From positions 1-34,056 of the IMG/VR virus record IMGVR_UViG_3300023184_000047: 34,056 nt of DNA, one strand, 5' to 3'. The translations under genes and the position numbers were made by a program. Under the pieces are notes generated by a model. The model saw nothing but the letters and a program-made list of their open reading frames with translations. It did not search any database and was not told the DNA's origin. Source of the stretch: a virus (Duplodnaviria > Heunggongvirae > Uroviricota > Caudoviricetes). This document shows, piece after piece, positions 3,731 through 9,828 of this stretch (its first letter is position 1; each line of letters opens with the position of its first letter).

Positions 3731-3825
3731 AGTCAGGTGGCGGAATGGTAGACGCTAAAGAGTCAAAGAGTCGTGCTTCTAAACTCTGAGGTAACACCAT
3801 ACAGGTTCGAATCCTGTCCTGACTA
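3731..3825 (+). tRNA. tRNA-like gene 2 (Leu/Ser-type D arm, long variable arm) with aberrant anticodon arm
   Basis: Acceptor AGTCAGG/CCTGACT + A73; D arm GCG-GAATGGTAGA-CGC; same T-arm as gene 1; tandem AAAGAGTC x2; AGAGT/ACTCT stem with an 11-nt loop; GGT-AAC-ACC variable arm. No CCA. Confidence 0.75.
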
Positions 3826-3840
3826 CTATTTATACAAAAC

Positions 3841-4205
3841 GGGGATGACTGGTTTTGACAAGTTATAAGTAATTAATACAATTCAGCCCAGAGAGAGAAC
3901 TGGTAAAAACTAAGGTGAAATTAATAAATGGCAAAAACAATTCTCGTGTAGTGGCTCTAGGAGCAAACGCACAAATCGAAGCTAACATGAACAAAGTATT
4001 CTCTTTAATCGGAGAAGAAGTTGCTGTAGCAGCCTAAATTAAACAAGATTTCTTAGTTAGATTAAACTGAGTGGTGGTTTCGCTGGCTTAATTGTCGGCC
4101 CTAGAGTGCGCCTGTAGACTCTTTAAATAAGTATGGGGACAAAAGCTGTATAAAGTTGTATTGAAGAACATGGTTTGGACGCGGGTTCGACTCCCGCCAT
4201 CTCCA
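3841..4205 (+). ncRNA. ssrA: tmRNA (transfer-messenger RNA)
   Basis: 5' GGGGATGACTGGTTTTGAC and 3' GGACGCGGGTTCGACTCCCGCCATCTCCA. Acceptor GGGGATG/CATCTCC has the G3.U70 alanine determinant; internal ORF ends AVAA*. CCA not encoded. Confidence 0.95.
3930..4037 (+). other. tmRNA tag reading frame, (A)GKNNSRVVALGANAQIEANMNKVFSLIGEEVAVAA*
   Basis: Resume codon GGC follows AATAAAT; 35 sense codons to TAA 4035-37; C-terminal AVAA degron-like end. The resume point is inferred. Confidence 0.8.
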
Positions 4206-4232
4206 CTATTTTTAATTTTTAATTTAATCGTT

Positions 4233-4451
4233 ATGGCAAAGACCAAACTAAACCGCACTGCAAAGTTAGCATTTTACAATGCTCGCGAGCGTAAAGACGA
4301 CACAAATCGTTTAGCAGAAACTACAGGTTATACACCTCGTTTCATCAATTATGTAAAAAATGGTGAAAGAAAAGTAAATGATCCATTAGCAGACGCTATG
4401 TACAATCTTGCTCGAAGACGTGCAAAAAACAGCGCAGTATCTGCGAGTTAA
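4233..4451 (+). CDS. Small basic helix-turn-helix DNA-binding protein, 72 aa (true start 4233, not 4161)
   Basis: RLAETTGYTPRFINYVKNGERK fits a Cro/XRE-like HTH. The track's 4161 start lies inside the tmRNA. Confidence 0.7.
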   Translation: MAKTKLNRTAKLAFYNARERKDDTNRLAETTGYTPRFINYVKNGERKVNDPLADAMYNLARRRAKNSAVSAS

Positions 4452-4464
4452 TCAATTCAAATAT

Positions 4465-4482
4465 GCCCCTTATAGGAGGGGC
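4465..4482 (+). terminator. GC-rich hairpin, probable intrinsic terminator
   Basis: GCCCCT-TATAGG-AGGGGC directly after the HTH gene, followed by an A/T tract. Confidence 0.6.
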
Positions 4483-4506
4483 TATATTTATTAAAACTAT
4501 TAAAGT

Positions 4507-4743
4507 ATGGATGAATTTTTAAAATTTCCTGAATTAACAGATGAAGAATTAGATCAAATAATGATTGAATTTTTTGAATGGGATGCATTACAAGATTATG
4601 ATTTGGTAAATGAATTTGATGATTTTATTTATATCTCATATGATGAAGTTTTAAATAACCCAAATGATATTGAATTAGGTGCCTTAGTTAGAAAACGGTA
4701 CATAGAAACTCAAGATAAATTAAAAGAAAGTTCCTTATTGTAG
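4507..4743 (+). CDS. Acidic hypothetical protein, 78 aa
   Basis: ORF track; D/E-rich; ATATTTAT motif 23 nt upstream. Confidence 0.7.
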   Translation: MDEFLKFPELTDEELDQIMIEFFEWDALQDYDLVNEFDDFIYISYDEVLNNPNDIELGALVRKRYIETQDKLKESSLL

Positions 4744-4752
4744 GAACTTTTA

Positions 4753-4760
4753 ATATTTAT
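4753..4760 (+). promoter_or_regulatory. ATATTTAT motif, putative phage late promoter (also at 4484, 6633, 10687, 24626)
   Basis: Recurs in intergenic gaps, usually 23-26 nt before an ATG (77 nt at this site). Confidence 0.45.
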
Positions 4761-4829
4761 ACTAAATAAGTTCTGTAATTAATGTTTTATAATTAGGTTA
4801 TACTTTAATCAATTTAAAAACATATTATT

Positions 4830-5072
4830 ATGGGATTTTTTAGTATTTTTAAGAAATCAAATGATTATAACGAAAAAGTTATAATAGGATTTCTATCATT
4901 TATGATAATGGTCATTGCAATCGCAGTAGACTTAATTACAGGCTACATGGGTAAGGCACTTGAGTTAAATGAATACATCTTCGACGCATTCATGTATATC
5001 ACATTAGGTAGCTTTCTTCCTGACGTAATTGAAAAGTTTGCTGGTTTTAGAGGAGGAAATAAATCTGAATAA
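4830..5072 (+). CDS. Two-TM membrane protein, holin-like
   Basis: 80 aa; two hydrophobic helices (VIIGFLSFMIMVIAIAV; IFDAFMYITLGSFL); lies in the lysis region. Confidence 0.6.
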   Translation: MGFFSIFKKSNDYNEKVIIGFLSFMIMVIAIAVDLITGYMGKALELNEYIFDAFMYITLGSFLPDVIEKFAGFRGGNKSE

Positions 5073-5083
5073 AACCAAAAATC

Positions 5084-5479
5084 TTGAAGAACTTAAATGA
5101 ATTTATACCTGCATTTTTAAATGGAGGGTGGGTAGTATTACTAATCGGAGCAGCAGGAATGATTGCCCGATTGGTTACCTCTAACTCTCCAGAGGAAACT
5201 AGCGCTAATAATATTATAAAAAATATTTTGGCGGCTATGATCACTTCTCTATTAGCTTGGTTTATTTTAGAGCAATTTGAGATTGATTCTCTATACAAGG
5301 CTCTAATATACGGCTTAGGGGGTTTAAATTCGCCTGAAATTTTAGGAGGTATCCTAAAAATATCCACATCATTCTCAAACAATCCAGGTGAATTCCTATC
5401 AAATATAAAATCAGGTAAGATACAAACTCCACCTAAAAGAGCAACAAGAGCTACAAAAAAACCAGTTAAAAGAAAATAG
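5084..5479 (+). CDS. Three-TM holin-like protein (LydA-like) with basic C-terminal tail
   Basis: GAAGMIARL / AAMITSLLAWFIL / ALIYGLGGLNS pattern; K/R-rich tail. Confidence 0.6.
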   Translation: MKNLNEFIPAFLNGGWVVLLIGAAGMIARLVTSNSPEETSANNIIKNILAAMITSLLAWFILEQFEIDSLYKALIYGLGGLNSPEILGGILKISTSFSNNPGEFLSNIKSGKIQTPPKRATRATKKPVKRK

Positions 5480-5483
5480 TCAT

Positions 5484-6188
5484 ATGAACAATCAAAAAAC
5501 ATTTATGTTAGTTTTAACCTCAATCGTTTTACTTATTGCAGGTTATGGAATTTATGTAGAGAAGAATATAAAAGCTTCTGCTACTACAATATTGGAGGAT
5601 AGATTAAAACCTGTACCTCTTATCTCTCACAGATTTGATTATTACGGAACTACCATTCAGGATAACTTCTCAAGTAATGTTGTGAACTATGAACAGTTAT
5701 TAGCTAATAGAGGAGAAATACAAAAAGTTAAAAAAGAAACTGAAGAAGGGTGGGAGACTTATAAAGCAACATATTTAACTCCTGAAGAAGCAAAACTTGT
5801 AGATCATGCACAAGAAGGAATGGATGAGGTTGATGCTTTAGTTAGTATGTTACTTGAAAAAGCAGTTACTAATAGAAAAGCAGTAGATAGTATACTTAAG
5901 ACAGGAATACTAAATGAAAAGATTACTCCTGTACTTGATGATACAAATGCTTTAATGGATTTACAAACAGAGGTAGGTAAGCAAGAAACTATAAAAATGA
6001 TTGACTTACTTAAGAACTTCTCAAACTTTATGATGGGGGCTTTAGCTCTAGCCATTGTACTGTTAGGTTCTATTATATATCCAATGATAAAGAAACCAGC
6101 AGAACAACCAAAAACAAGAAGAAAAACTCCAATTAAAAAACCTGCAGCTAAAAAAACAACAACAACTAGAAGAACAGTTAAAAAATAA
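5484..6188 (+). CDS. TM - chemoreceptor four-helix-bundle (4HB_MCP_1-like) - TM protein with no signalling domain
   Basis: TM1 then ILEDRLKP, WETYKATYLTPEEAKL, NALMDLQ, TM2, and a short K/R/T-rich tail. Confidence 0.75.
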   Translation: MNNQKTFMLVLTSIVLLIAGYGIYVEKNIKASATTILEDRLKPVPLISHRFDYYGTTIQDNFSSNVVNYEQLLANRGEIQKVKKETEEGWETYKATYLTPEEAKLVDHAQEGMDEVDALVSMLLEKAVTNRKAVDSILKTGILNEKITPVLDDTNALMDLQTEVGKQETIKMIDLLKNFSNFMMGALALAIVLLGSIIYPMIKKPAEQPKTRRKTPIKKPAAKKTTTTRRTVKK

Positions 6189-6628
6189 TGAAGAAACTTT
6201 TTATTTTTATTATATTACTTGTGTCTATGATGAGTTATTCTCAAACTAAGCACTATGTATGTTTTGCACCAAATATAGCTTTTAATTCAACCGTTAAAGA
6301 TGTAAATAATTTATTGGGATGTACTGTAGAAGTAGGAAAGTATATAGGAGATAGTGCAATAGGAATTACCACAGGATTTTATTCCTTACAAAGCAATTCA
6401 TTATACTCAGAGTTAATTGTAACTGTTCCTATTAGTAAAGAACTTCCAATTACAGTATCAGCAGGAATAGGATGGTTCTATTTTCAAAAAGATATTACAA
6501 TGGAATATGATATTAATTATGCCTTTCGGCTTAGGGACGATCTATCGCTTATAGTAACCTATAATGCTCAAAGTGCTTTTGGAACGACTGTGCAAGCTTT
6601 TTGTATAGGATTAAATAAGGATTTCTAA
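6188..6628 (+). CDS. Secreted protein, probable small outer-membrane beta-barrel
   Basis: Signal peptide MKKLFIFIILLVSMMSYSQ; alternating beta-strand pattern; C-terminal GLNKDF ending in Phe. Confidence 0.55.
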   Translation: MKKLFIFIILLVSMMSYSQTKHYVCFAPNIAFNSTVKDVNNLLGCTVEVGKYIGDSAIGITTGFYSLQSNSLYSELIVTVPISKELPITVSAGIGWFYFQKDITMEYDINYAFRLRDDLSLIVTYNAQSAFGTTVQAFCIGLNKDF

Positions 6629-6655: not shown

Positions 6656-7267
6656 ATGAGTCTAAAATCACTACAAACTAAAATTGGAGTAACGGCAGAC
6701 GGAGTATTTGGTCCAGGTACAATGAAAAAAGCAATGGAGTTTTATAAACTAACTCCAGTTAGAGCAGCACATTTCTTTGCTCAAACAGCACACGAAACAG
6801 GAGGGTTTAAAGCATTTGCAGAAAATTTAAACTACTCAGCAGAAGGATTACAAGGTATCTTTGGAAAATATTTCCCAGGTAATTTAGAAGAATCTTACGC
6901 TAGAAATCCTGAAAAAATTGCTAACAGAGTTTATGCATCAAGAATGGGTAATGGAGCAGAAGCTTCAGGAGATGGATGGAAATTTAGAGGAAGAGGTGCT
7001 CTTCAATTAACTGGAAAAGACAACTATACAGCTTTTGCCCAGTATTTACAAAAACCGGAGATCATGACTACCCCAGATCTAGTAGCAACTACTTACTCAT
7101 TTGAATCAGCAATGTTTTTCTTTGATAAAAATAAATTGTGGTCAATATGTGACCAAGGAATCAATGATGCCGCTATCTTAGCTCTTACAAAAAGAATTAA
7201 CGGTGGTACTCATGGGTTAGCAGATCGCTCAGAGAAAACTAAAAAATATTACGAATATATTAAATAA
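6656..7267 (+). CDS. Endolysin, glycoside hydrolase family 19 with N-terminal peptidoglycan-binding motif
   Basis: LQTKIGVTADGVFGPGT; AHFFAQTAHETGGF; FRGRGALQLTGKDNY; RINGGTHGLADR. Confidence 0.92.
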   Translation: MSLKSLQTKIGVTADGVFGPGTMKKAMEFYKLTPVRAAHFFAQTAHETGGFKAFAENLNYSAEGLQGIFGKYFPGNLEESYARNPEKIANRVYASRMGNGAEASGDGWKFRGRGALQLTGKDNYTAFAQYLQKPEIMTTPDLVATTYSFESAMFFFDKNKLWSICDQGINDAAILALTKRINGGTHGLADRSEKTKKYYEYIK

Positions 7268-7278
7268 GTTGCCATAAG

Positions 7279-7698
7279 ATGAAAACATCACTATTAATTA
7301 CATTATCATTGACAACAGCATTAGCATTTATTGGTACATATTTTATGCACCTAACAGCAGATAACATCGAACAATTCTTAGCAGTTGGGTTGGTTGTCTT
7401 TGCTGATGGTTTCTTTGGTATATGGGCAGGAGTTAAAAGAGAAGGTTTTCAAACTTGTAAAGCATTAAAGGTATTAAAGACATTTGGATTTTGGATGGTA
7501 ATGTTGGCTTGTATTCTTTCAATTGAAAAAGGATTTACAGGAACAAGTTGGTTAAGTGAAACTATCATAGCACCATTTATGGTATTCCAACTAATATCAA
7601 TACTAAAAAATGCTTCAATGGTAGGAGTTGTTAAGAATGAATTACTAACTCAAATATTAGACAGACTAGACAAACATAAAGGAGAAAGAAATACCTAA
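7279..7698 (+). CDS. Phage holin (Phage_holin_4-like)
   Basis: Multi-TM; DGFFGIWAG..EGF and FQLISILKNA pattern; directly after the endolysin. Confidence 0.75.
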   Translation: MKTSLLITLSLTTALAFIGTYFMHLTADNIEQFLAVGLVVFADGFFGIWAGVKREGFQTCKALKVLKTFGFWMVMLACILSIEKGFTGTSWLSETIIAPFMVFQLISILKNASMVGVVKNELLTQILDRLDKHKGERNT

Positions 7699-7722: not shown

Positions 7723-7748
7723 GGTTGGATATTGTCCAACCTTTTCTT
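7723..7748 (+). terminator. Intrinsic terminator ending the lysis cassette
   Basis: GGTTGGAT-ATT-GTCCAACC hairpin followed by TTTTCTT. Confidence 0.65.
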
Positions 7749-7771: not shown

Positions 7772-8545
7772 ATGAAAAGAATAGAAGATTATAATAAAAC
7801 ACTTCCCGTTGTAGAGCTTTATACAGCTGTACAATCAGAAGGAAGTAGAGCAGGTTATCCAACAGTAGTAATCAGAACAACAGGGTGTACTCACAGATGT
7901 TGGTTTGGTGAAGGTGGATGGTGCGATTCTTGGTACACAAGTATCCATCCTGAGAAAGGGCATATTAGTTTCCAAGACATTATTAACATGTACGATGCAA
8001 ATCCTCACATCACAGAGATGATGTTAACAGGAGGATCACCAACTATGCACCCAGCATTAGTAAACGAACTAACACATTTTGCACATGAAAGAAAAATATT
8101 TATCACTATTGAAACTGAAGGAAGTCATTTTCTGGAGACTGACTATCCTATTAATTTACTTTCCATATCACCTAAGTTTAGTAATTCGGTTCCTAAAATC
8201 GGAGTACTTACTCCTCAAGGAGCGGTTACGGATGAGAAAATGATTACTCAACACAACAAGTTAAGACTTAATTATGATGCCATTTCAAAATCAATCTCTT
8301 ACCATTCTGATTATCACTTAAAACCAGTATGGGATGGAGAGGATCAAGAAGCATTAGCTGAAATTATGGCTTGCATTAAAATGTTAGACATTCCAGAAGA
8401 CAAAGTATGGTTCATGCCAGCAGGAGATTCAAGAGAAGCTTTATTCAAATCATATCCAAAAATGTTTGATTGGGTAAGAGATAATGGTTATAGATTGACC
8501 TGGAGACCTCACATCATTGCATTTGAAGATCAAAGAGAAGTATAA
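7772..8545 (+). CDS. queE: 7-carboxy-7-deazaguanine synthase QueE (radical SAM)
   Basis: LYTAVQSEGSRAGYPTVVIRTTGC, CTHRC...WCDS, LTGGSP, TIETEG, SISPK. Confidence 0.9.
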   Translation: MKRIEDYNKTLPVVELYTAVQSEGSRAGYPTVVIRTTGCTHRCWFGEGGWCDSWYTSIHPEKGHISFQDIINMYDANPHITEMMLTGGSPTMHPALVNELTHFAHERKIFITIETEGSHFLETDYPINLLSISPKFSNSVPKIGVLTPQGAVTDEKMITQHNKLRLNYDAISKSISYHSDYHLKPVWDGEDQEALAEIMACIKMLDIPEDKVWFMPAGDSREALFKSYPKMFDWVRDNGYRLTWRPHIIAFEDQREV

Positions 8546-8760
8546 TGAGATTAAAAGAAGCACATATGACAGAATTTGATTTACTAAATTCACTTTGGTG
8601 GTTATGGTGTAATCAAAAAATTAGTATAGGTGATGTAAAATTCTATGTAAAAGATTTGGATCTTGAATTAGACTTTATTACATTAGACGGATATAAATTT
8701 ATAAGTACAGATAAAAAAACAACTTATTCTTATGACAGAAAACAGAAAAAAGATTCATAA
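8545..8760 (+). CDS. Hypothetical protein, 71 aa
   Basis: ORF track; TAATG coupling with queE. Confidence 0.6.
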   Translation: MRLKEAHMTEFDLLNSLWWLWCNQKISIGDVKFYVKDLDLELDFITLDGYKFISTDKKTTYSYDRKQKKDS

Positions 8761-9427
8761 CGATTTAGAAATCGTTCCTGTAGGTTATGCAAACGGTGTA
8801 GCACCAGGTTTTCCATTTACCGAAAAAGAAAAACAATCTATGATTGAAGACGCTGCTAAGGCATATGGTAAATTCTTAGATGCATTAGGGTGTGATTGGA
8901 AAAACGATCCTAATAGTGATAACACTCCAATGAGAGTAGCTAAAGCCTATGTTAATGACTTATGGAAAGGTAGATATACAGCAATGTCTGAAATTACTTC
9001 ATTTCCTTCTGATGGTTATGATGGAATCGTAATTGAAAGAAACATTCCATTAACTTCAATGTGTTCACATCACCATCAAACCATTGGAGGAGTAGTTCAT
9101 ATTGGTTATGTAGTAGGTGAAAATGGTAGAGTAATTGGTTTATCCAAATTAAACAGAATAGTGGAACTATTTGGTAGAAGAGGAGCAATACAAGAACAAT
9201 TAACTTCTGCTATTCATAATGCAGTAGATAAAATTTGTGAAAACAATAGAGGTGTAATTGTAACTGTAGTAGGTACTCACAACTGTGTTTCATGTAGAGG
9301 AGTTAGACATCAAGGTGCTTCAATGGTTACAACTAAAGCAGCAGGTGTGTTTATGGAAAATGGGAATTTAGCTCGTGAAGAGTTTTTTGATTCAATCAAA
9401 ATTAATAACGGAACACACCCAGTATAA
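8732..9427 (+). CDS. folE: GTP cyclohydrolase I
   Basis: TPMRVAK, SMCSHHH, GLSKLNRIV, QEQLT, HNCVSCRGV. Confidence 0.96.
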   Translation: MTENRKKIHNDLEIVPVGYANGVAPGFPFTEKEKQSMIEDAAKAYGKFLDALGCDWKNDPNSDNTPMRVAKAYVNDLWKGRYTAMSEITSFPSDGYDGIVIERNIPLTSMCSHHHQTIGGVVHIGYVVGENGRVIGLSKLNRIVELFGRRGAIQEQLTSAIHNAVDKICENNRGVIVTVVGTHNCVSCRGVRHQGASMVTTKAAGVFMENGNLAREEFFDSIKINNGTHPV

Positions 9428-9828
9428 TGGCTCTAACAATAAATAATAAAATCTATTTAGATTGGGATGATGTTAATGATTTAGTTAATACTCTTTGTGA
9501 AAAAATCATCATTGATCTTCCTAATATTGATTCAATTTATGGTATTAAACGAGGTGGGTTAATCCCCGCCGTATTAATATCGCATAAATTAGGTTTACCA
9601 TGGTCTGACGTGATGTTACCTAATACATTAGTTATAGATGATATTGCTGATACCGGAGAAACATTAAAGAATACAATAGGTTGCTATACAGCAGTATTGC
9701 ATTATAAACCCCATACATCATGTTATATGCCTAATTTATGGGCGTATGTGCATGAAGGAGATGAATGGATTATTTATCCATGGGAACGAAAAGATTCACA
9801 ACCAATACAAGATTATTTAAACAAATAA
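9427..9828 (+). CDS. Type I purine phosphoribosyltransferase (Gpt/XGPRT-like)
   Basis: GIKRGGLIPA, PRPP-binding LVIDDIADTGETL, WIIYPWE. Confidence 0.88.
   Translation: MALTINNKIYLDWDDVNDLVNTLCEKIIIDLPNIDSIYGIKRGGLIPAVLISHKLGLPWSDVMLPNTLVIDDIADTGETLKNTIGCYTAVLHYKPHTSCYMPNLWAYVHEGDEWIIYPWERKDSQPIQDYLNK

Follow-up and report, generated by a model that had tools for sequence, protein, structure and literature searches.

A Chemoreceptor-Type Four-Helix-Bundle Protein Coupled to a Holin-Like Gene as a Candidate Regulator of Phage Lysis Timing

Lysis timing sets the burst size and fitness of phages. In the lysis inhibition of phage T4, the periplasmic antiholin RI acts on the holin T; RI is a small domain with a single signal-anchor-release segment at its N-terminus, and its binding site on T is the large periplasmic domain. 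To our knowledge, this is the only well-understood case in which an outside cue feeds the holin clock, and we know of hardly any study of the lysis systems of Bacteroidota phages. In phage lambda, the basic C-terminus of S tunes lysis timing. Phage P1 has several holins in one system, in which the LydA-type holin gene lydA is followed by the antiholin gene lydB, whose product delays lysis, has no predicted transmembrane (TM) segment and has no homologues of known function (PMC9025707). Here we describe a gene at positions 5484–6188 of a 34,056-nucleotide (nt) stretch of viral DNA (Caudoviricetes; positions 1–34,056 of IMG/VR record IMGVR_UViG_3300023184_000047; the whole stretch is hereafter called the window). 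Its product, hereafter the four-helix-bundle (4HB) protein, is, by its sequence and predicted structure, an inner-membrane protein reduced to the input half of a chemoreceptor or sensor kinase, and the gene is the fixed, translationally coupled downstream partner of a holin-like gene, hol131, in a lysis operon. The 4HB protein may be a holin-bound lysis-timing regulator with periplasmic input, a reading to which we assign a probability of roughly 45%.

The gene and its parts are as follows.

5484–6188, + strand: 4HB gene, encoding a 234-residue TM1-4HB_MCP_1-TM2 protein with a basic tail and the output domain absent (open reading frame (ORF), Pfam, AlphaFold2, Foldseek, VIA-align, motifs)
5502–5558, + strand: TM1, residues 7–25 (hydropathy)
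5559–6011, + strand: periplasmic four-helix bundle, residues 26–176 (Pfam, AlphaFold2, VIA-align)
6012–6089, + strand: TM2 region, residues 177–202, with the family-invariant motif F-x-N-F-M-x-G ... G-S (alignment, AlphaFold2, hydropathy)
6090–6185, + strand: disordered, K/R/T/P-rich cytoplasmic tail, residues 203–234 (AlphaFold2, composition)

A 4HB_MCP_1 domain is confirmed at this position. The Pfam family PF12729 covers residues 9–169 at 40.4 bits (cut-off 27; E 3e-10), aligned to profile positions 13–174 of 181, so that the profile check proposed with the original prediction came out above the cut-off and over most of the model; the match was seen again in a six-frame search (38.5 bits). 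The TM-4HB-TM topology that had been read from the letters alone is borne out by Pfam, hydropathy (TM segments at 7–25 and 184–202), the AlphaFold2 model and structure searches. All three of the family signatures named there were also found, namely ILEDRLKP at residues 36–43, W-x-x-Y-x-x-T-x-L-T-x-E-E at 90–102 and L-x-x-L-Q at 157–161, and in alignments with full-length chemoreceptors and histidine kinases they match column by column. Since K or R always precedes TM1 in the family, the N-terminus is predicted to lie inside.

With regard to the output side, Pfam gave no HAMP or MCPsignal match in the 4HB protein at E ≤ 1, and no kinase domain. The protein is not a full methyl-accepting chemotaxis protein (MCP), as it stops 32 residues past TM2, with a tail at the place where the aligned receptors enter HAMP. 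This 32-residue tail contains 14 K+R versus 1 D+E, in agreement with the earlier view that a basic tail replaces the HAMP and signalling domains, and across the family its sequence varies while its composition stays constant.

An AlphaFold2 model, built from 23 family members, has a mean predicted local distance difference test (pLDDT) score of 75, which reaches 84–93 in the periplasmic part and falls below 50 in the disordered tail (residues 204–234). In this model, TM1 runs on into helix 1 of four helices and helix 4 runs on into TM2. Foldseek matches of low root-mean-square deviation were the sensor domains of Vc1313, Tar, MCP2201, Adeh_2942 and NarQ, with TM-scores by target of 0.69–0.82 against the ligand-binding domains of Tar, Vc1313 and MCP2201. 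The top rows of an exhaustive VIA-align search were likewise five chemoreceptor or kinase sensor domains with Z of 13–15, the level at which helical bundles start to be meaningful, and the matches in AlphaFold-DB and ESM-Atlas were MCPs and kinases whose alignments span TM1 to TM2 (in the Atlas rows, residues 1 to about 215). The most conserved parts of the family are helix 1, the turn between helices 2 and 3, the end of helix 4, and TM2. No meaningful family for the 4HB protein was returned by PHROGs, NCBIfam or PADLOC. A possible dual start at Met residue 8, which looked invariant in a first alignment, was rejected, as the residue is Met in 41 of 49 sequences and Leu in the other 8.

The 4HB gene lies within a cassette of six tightly packed genes bracketed by terminator-like hairpins, the other features of which are as follows.

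4726–4751, + strand: terminator-like hairpin 5′ of the cassette, between the ORF at 4507–4743 and the first cassette gene (10-bp stem, T-rich tail)
4830–5072, + strand: tm80, an 80-residue holin-like membrane protein with about two hydrophobic segments (ORF, hydropathy)
5084–5479, + strand: hol131, a 131-residue holin-like protein with 2–3 hydrophobic segments and a basic C-terminal tail (sub-threshold hidden Markov models (HMMs), language model)
6188–6628, + strand: omp146, a predicted secreted 8-stranded outer-membrane beta-barrel, whose start overlaps the 4HB stop (TAATG) (AlphaFold2, Foldseek)
6656–7267, + strand: GH19-type endolysin (PF00182, E 9.6e-8; phrog_181 endolysin, E 9.5e-62)
7279–7698, + strand: Phage_holin_4_1 holin (PF05105, 30.7 bits; cut-off 22.2)
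7723–7741, + strand: terminator-like hairpin at the 3′ end of the cassette, after the holin stop and before the QueE-like gene at 7772 (8-bp stem, T-rich tail)

The GH19 endolysin and the above-cut-off holin downstream place the gene in a lysis module, as had been proposed. A scan for sigma-70 promoters gave matches only at the level of shuffled sequence. The hol131 product of the window matches the LydA holin family PF16083 below the cut-off (E 1.7e-3), 7 of 13 hol131 family members match the same family (best 6e-5), and a match to the holin family phrog_6384 was obtained at E 3e-4. In addition, the nearest atlas clusters by protein language model are viral holin clusters with Pfams of holin superfamily III (0.90–0.93). 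The nearest language-model clusters of tm80 are also viral, and one of them is auto-named holin (score 0.94), which serves as a lead to a holin identity for tm80. The tail of the 4HB protein had been described as similar to that of the adjacent holin-like protein; this stands for composition, the hol131 tail having 10 K+R, and not for alignment, as unfiltered blastp gave no alignable similarity between the tails or TM segments of the 4HB protein, hol131, tm80 and the downstream holin.

Gene linkage was followed in 196 related loci, which were found with the 4HB protein, hol131 and omp146 as queries and scanned with HMMs; the counts run over 76 distinct 4HB proteins. In each of the 72 loci with room, the 4HB gene is immediately preceded by hol131 at a distance of −4 to +5 nt (two seeming exceptions were artefacts of ORF starts), and no hol131 or omp146 locus with room among the 196 lacks the 4HB gene. 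Even relatives of only about 40% identity keep the pairing, including its start-stop overlaps. Directly downstream, omp146 is found in 62 of 73 loci, and 11 of the 73 are without omp146 yet keep the hol131-4HB pair. In one lineage (L002 5731–6129; also L027 and L028), a gene for a 132-residue TM-plus-coiled-coil protein sits between the 4HB and barrel genes.

Wider surroundings were assessed in 41 well-flanked loci, with at least 2.5 kb on either side of the 4HB gene. All 41 have a tm80 relative, belonging to either of two sequence types, no more than 3.3 kb from the 4HB gene; an endolysin (one of four seed types) is found within the same distance in 33, and a Phage_holin_4_1 holin is nearby in only 10. 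The invariant core therefore consists of tm80, hol131 and the 4HB gene, and because the Phage_holin_4_1 type is not nearby in 31 of the 41 loci, hol131 and tm80 are the sole holin candidates there. For the same reason the holin at 7279–7698, one of the two genes suggested earlier for interaction tests, is unlikely to be a specific partner. The endolysin changes both its type (GH19; peptidoglycan-binding plus GH19; two others, unclassified) and its side of the core across relatives, and the endolysin slot is a clear case of endolysin cassette swapping. At least four endolysin types were seen beside the tm80-hol131-4HB core (L004 6501–7316, L032 3443–4036, L100 4838–5305 and window 6656–7267).

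Given the strict and translationally coupled pairing in 72 of 72 loci, a holin-directed role of the 4HB protein seems the most economical reading. By its genomic setting the gene would fall with the antiholins, being encoded with, and apparently specific to, a probable holin gene in a lysis cassette. The protein would sit in the membrane beside hol131 and set the moment at which hol131, tm80 or both make holes. A small molecule or a protein would act as the cue for the periplasmic bundle. Helix 4 and TM2 would shift in response, and this movement, which receptors relay to HAMP, would pass sideways to the TM helices of the holin, while the basic tail would lie with that of hol131 at the cytoplasmic face. 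The effect on lysis could be a delay, as with an antiholin, or a promotion. In receptors, helix 1, helix 4 and TM2 form the dimer core and carry the piston signal, and the concentration of conservation on the same three elements in the 4HB family counts in favour of this reading.

A role in the membrane apart from lysis timing, with the gene merely co-transcribed, was also considered, for example superinfection exclusion, a block of DNA entry, or alteration of the cell surface by the barrel. Phage lysis regions often hold surface-modifying or exclusion genes, such as bor beside the lambda lysis genes, and a secreted barrel together with inner-membrane proteins would suit such a role. Against this stand the absolute pairing with the holin-like gene, with its start-stop overlaps kept at about 40% identity, and the fact that neither PADLOC nor PHROGs gave a match to a family for defence or exclusion, and we regard this explanation as improbable.

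Further evidence for regulation through hol131 comes from a mosaic lineage, loci L018–L022. Compared with the window, the periplasmic bundle is 83–89% identical in amino acids (79% in nucleotides) and the GH19 endolysin 90–93%, whereas TM1 is 50%, TM2 about 55%, hol131 62–68% and omp146 56–68% identical. These latter parts have diverged as much as in the most distant family members, and the break-points fall at the domain borders, near 5560–5580 and 6010–6060. The TM segments and tail thus travel with hol131 and not with the sensor domain, and the bundle has a history of its own. Such a mosaic would be the pattern to expect of TM segments matched to hol131 and of a bundle with a specificity separate from theirs.

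A more specific proposal, which we hold as doubtful, is that the 4HB protein of these freshwater phages forms a signal-gated lysis clock in which a chemoreceptor input module is wired directly to a holin. The periplasmic cue, chemical or protein, might report the nutrient state, come from the host envelope or signal that a sister phage is superinfecting the cell. Contacts between TM helices, with no phosphorylation or methylation involved, would then make the holes form sooner or later. On this view, lineages that exchanged the bundle precisely at its domain borders would have swapped input specificity.

Several points weigh against a holin-bound regulator. The identity of hol131 as a holin is only probable, its evidence being sub-threshold HMM matches and language-model likeness. 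The PDB holds no sequence relative of the 4HB protein, hence no ligand can be proposed from it; the most conserved bundle residues are largely those common to the whole of PF12729, the membrane-distal half of the bundle is the most variable, and no family-specific pocket is evident. The mosaic evidence represents a single evolutionary event. Finally, the tight coupling to the omp146 barrel gene is unexplained by a lysis-timing model.

Some of these points bear on another explanation, in which the 4HB protein is a structural co-holin, that is, an obligatory, non-sensing subunit of a multi-component holin together with hol131 and tm80, the bundle serving only as a periplasmic spacer or oligomerisation domain. 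Multi-component or two-component holin systems are present in SPP1 and PBSX. The N-in, C-in topology with two TM segments and the basic C-terminal tail are hallmarks of class II holins, the gene is strictly linked with two holin-like genes, and the missing pocket would fit a bundle that senses nothing. A precedent for multi-holin and two-component systems is given by P1 (PMC9025707). The topology and charged C-terminus of the 4HB protein do fit a class II holin, but the 'loop' is a folded domain of 150 residues, and no holin-family HMM of Pfam or PHROGs matched the protein. It would also be harder to understand, if the bundle were only a spacer, why a full receptor-type bundle with the family motifs is kept under strong purifying selection (ratio of nonsynonymous to synonymous substitution rates, dN/dS, 0.09) and why it was exchanged as a discrete unit in one lineage, which is easier to explain if the bundle has its own specificity. 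By region, the pairwise dN/dS of the gene is 0.045 (TM1), 0.086 (bundle), 0.12 (TM2) and 0.36 (tail), so that the gene is under selection throughout, with strong purifying selection over the structured parts (0.04–0.12). A co-holin therefore seems unlikely to us, and ranks below a holin-bound regulator.

The omp146 barrel could be a different partner. Its AlphaFold2 model has a pLDDT of 90, eight strands and short connections between them, and the Foldseek matches were OmpX, NspA and the TM domain of OmpA (E about 1e-4). A signal peptide and an invariant C-terminal G-x-N-K-D-F are present; the predicted signal sequence ends in ...SYSQ with no cysteine there, and cleavage would be expected at that point. 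The omp146 family was found only in phages of this type and is almost always coupled to the 4HB gene. It is conceivable that the 4HB bundle works with this barrel in the manner of a spanin, so that the outer membrane is broken in the final stage of lysis. The overlap of the omp146 start with the 4HB stop, the position of the barrel gene as next gene in 62 of 73 loci, and its confidently predicted 8-stranded outer-membrane fold would agree with such a device, and QseE-QseG (PDB 9m08) is an example of a 4HB kinase sensor with an outer-membrane lipoprotein bound to it. On the other hand, i-spanins have a single N-terminal anchor, whereas both ends of the 4HB protein are anchored in the inner membrane; it has a second TM segment at 184–202 and a cytoplasmic basic tail, and the barrel downstream is not a lipoprotein. 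The short strand connections of the modelled barrel would leave little to reach an inner-membrane bundle.

In addition, the genome of the window and many relatives hold a separate overlapping gene pair that fits spanins better. In the genome of the window (G000 112182–112878; L051 1239–1935), a 119-residue protein with a TM segment and coiled coil is followed by a 144-residue secreted protein with a hydrophobic C-terminus, and relatives carry such pairs beside the cassette (L018 6197–6863, L004 7319–8105, L100 5274–6000). This better pair, and the persistence of the hol131-4HB pair in the 11 of 73 loci without a barrel, lead us to rank a spanin-like function low. Across the spanin-like pairs, the first gene encodes about 117 residues with an N-terminal TM segment and a coiled coil, and the second a secreted protein of 134–155 residues that has no lipobox cysteine at the predicted cleavage site and ends in a hydrophobic helix or in an aromatic signal of outer-membrane-protein type (...EYNLF). 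These gene pairs are candidate non-lipoprotein spanin equivalents of Flavobacterium-type phages.

With regard to distribution, a word-indexed search of metagenomic proteins returned 232 relatives of the 4HB protein, of 226–253 residues and 45–100% identity, with the same architecture throughout; some lie on contigs of up to 247 kb, and nearly all family members have a precomputed PF12729 match. A profile search of 1.84 billion representatives gave about eight 50%-identity clusters of the family at E ≤ 1e-55 and, beyond a gap, about 190 matches at E 1e-17 to 1e-10. Ten sampled from these distant matches are full MCPs or sensor kinases matched over TM1-4HB-TM2, and the family profile, which detects such modules with E values as low as 1.9e-17, scores 73–80 bits against MCP or histidine kinase modules. 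The domain identity is thus more than chance, and the 4HB protein belongs to a phage-only family derived from a receptor or kinase sensor module, TM segments included.

No relative of the 4HB protein was found in about 185,000 prokaryote species genomes (one genome per species), so that a prophage or host origin is not traceable. In tblastn against 50,697 cultured-phage records, including that of Flavobacterium phage immuto, the 4HB protein, hol131 and omp146 had no match. Phage immuto is the nearest cultured phage and is 80% identical to the window in nucleotides over the endolysin and holin: the window endolysin is 80% nt-identical to the annotated endolysin of immuto, and the counterpart of 7279–7698 is annotated as a holin there. 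These two genes are all that immuto has in common with the window cassette, and nothing comparable to the 4HB gene is found among the annotated genes 5′ of its endolysin. The window itself is part of a 117.8-kb IMG/VR virus record that is about 71% complete, and the best sequencing run containing the stretch is a lake-water metagenome.

Cellular relatives of the domain were sampled in 301 Bacteroidota genomes, of which 85 contain PF12729 above the cut-off, with about 20 matches in frames of 203–243 residues and most in kinase-sized frames. Five stand-alone frames were read, and all are TM-4HB-TM proteins with short, non-basic tails that are not beside holin or lysis genes; output-less 4HB bundles are therefore not unique to phages. 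Examples of about 220–233 residues are L281 3484–4143, L283 2611–3312, L284 2942–3616 and L285 2873–3538, the first of which adjoins a TPR histidine kinase at 4348–6453. The phage profile scores the five stand-alone proteins at 3–31 bits, far from the 73–80 bits seen with MCP and kinase modules, which indicates that they are not the near source of the phage family.

This distance, together with the fixed phage partner, argues against the second function offered in the original prediction, that of a dominant-negative decoy. A decoy of this kind would be an output-less module that forms dead heterodimers with a host kinase or receptor and so silences a host pathway. Output-less receptor halves could in principle poison dimeric receptors, and the PF12729 modules in 85 of 301 sampled Bacteroidota genomes, mostly in kinase-sized frames, would offer targets. 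Heterodimerisation, however, normally needs close similarity, and the phage profile finds nothing at E ≤ 0.01 in five cellular Bacteroidota genomes, nor is there a family relative in the large set of prokaryote genomes. The TM segments of the 4HB protein co-vary with the phage gene hol131, and a decoy would leave the fixed operon position beside a holin-like gene unexplained. We therefore disfavour it strongly, as the least probable of the readings considered.

Other features of the window were noted outside the cassette. An unusually long tRNA-Phe of 96 nt with an AAA anticodon (3731–3826) and a phage-encoded tmRNA whose predicted tag ends in ...EEVAVAA (3841–4206) were both detected by ARAGORN. 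A QueE-like radical-SAM gene (phrog_2076, E 5.5e-54) lies right after the lysis cassette, within 7772–9828, and GTP-cyclohydrolase-I-like and phosphoribosyltransferase-like genes seem to come next, as judged by eye from ORF translations only.

Literature searches returned no paper linking a 4HB_MCP domain to phage lysis or holins, or an antiholin to a four-helix bundle, and nothing relevant on phage-encoded MCP ligand-binding domains. The 4HB protein would thus be a partner or regulator of a holin whose domain is new to such a function. The present data suggest, but fall short of proving, that these Flavobacterium-type phages adjust when the host lyses to a signal read outside the cytoplasm. 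If this is true, a captured bacterial sensor fixed to a holin gene would provide a second, mechanistically different route to cue-fed lysis; it would also mean that receptor TM signalling can pass sideways to another membrane protein without HAMP or a kinase, and it would make lysis control in Bacteroidota phages more tractable to study. The idea is directly testable, given that the bundle is soluble, that mosaics of TM segments and sensor occur naturally and that the operon is small.

Compared with known systems, the closest likeness is to the 4HB_MCP_1 modules of MCPs and kinases (MCP2201, Vc1313, McpN, Tar, NarQ and Adeh_2942), which have the same TM1, up-down four-helix bundle and TM2, and share with the phage protein the motifs D-R-x-x-P, W-x-x-Y-x-x-T, T-P-E-E and L-Q. 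Unlike these modules, the phage protein is without HAMP, MCPsignal or kinase domains, and its gene is phage-encoded in a lysis operon. The cellular stand-alone TM-4HB-TM proteins have the same output-less architecture, belong to the same Pfam family and come from the phylum of the presumed host, but they are distant (3–31 bits), their tails are short and non-basic, and they are not next to lysis genes. The sensors of QseE-QseG, TorS-TorT and LytS-XylFII have the same fold as well (VIA-align Z 10.6–12.7) and provide a precedent for bundles that bind proteins, including an outer-membrane lipoprotein, instead of small ligands; these sensors retain their kinase output, which the phage protein does not.

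Among phage systems, T4 RI and T resemble the model proposed here in that a membrane-tethered phage protein would likewise govern holin triggering on an outside cue through its periplasmic domain. RI has no detectable sequence relationship to the 4HB protein, the T4 lysis genes are scattered and not gathered in one operon as in the window, and hol131, unlike T, is without a large periplasmic domain, so that contact would go through TM helices or tails. The lambda proteins S105/S107 and the 4HB protein both carry a strongly basic cytoplasmic C-terminus next to the last TM segment, although the lambda antiholin is an N-terminally extended holin and the candidate regulator here is a separate, unrelated protein. 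The Rz/Rz1 spanins also combine an inner-membrane helical periplasmic protein with an overlapping gene for an outer-membrane protein beside an endolysin, but the 4HB protein has two anchors, and its downstream neighbour is a beta-barrel instead of a lipoprotein and is missing in 11 of 73 loci. In gene order the P1 lydA-lydB pair is similar, as a holin of superfamily III type (the best, sub-threshold Pfam match of hol131 being LydA) is followed at once by the gene of a partner; in contrast to LydB, that partner is here a two-TM receptor module.

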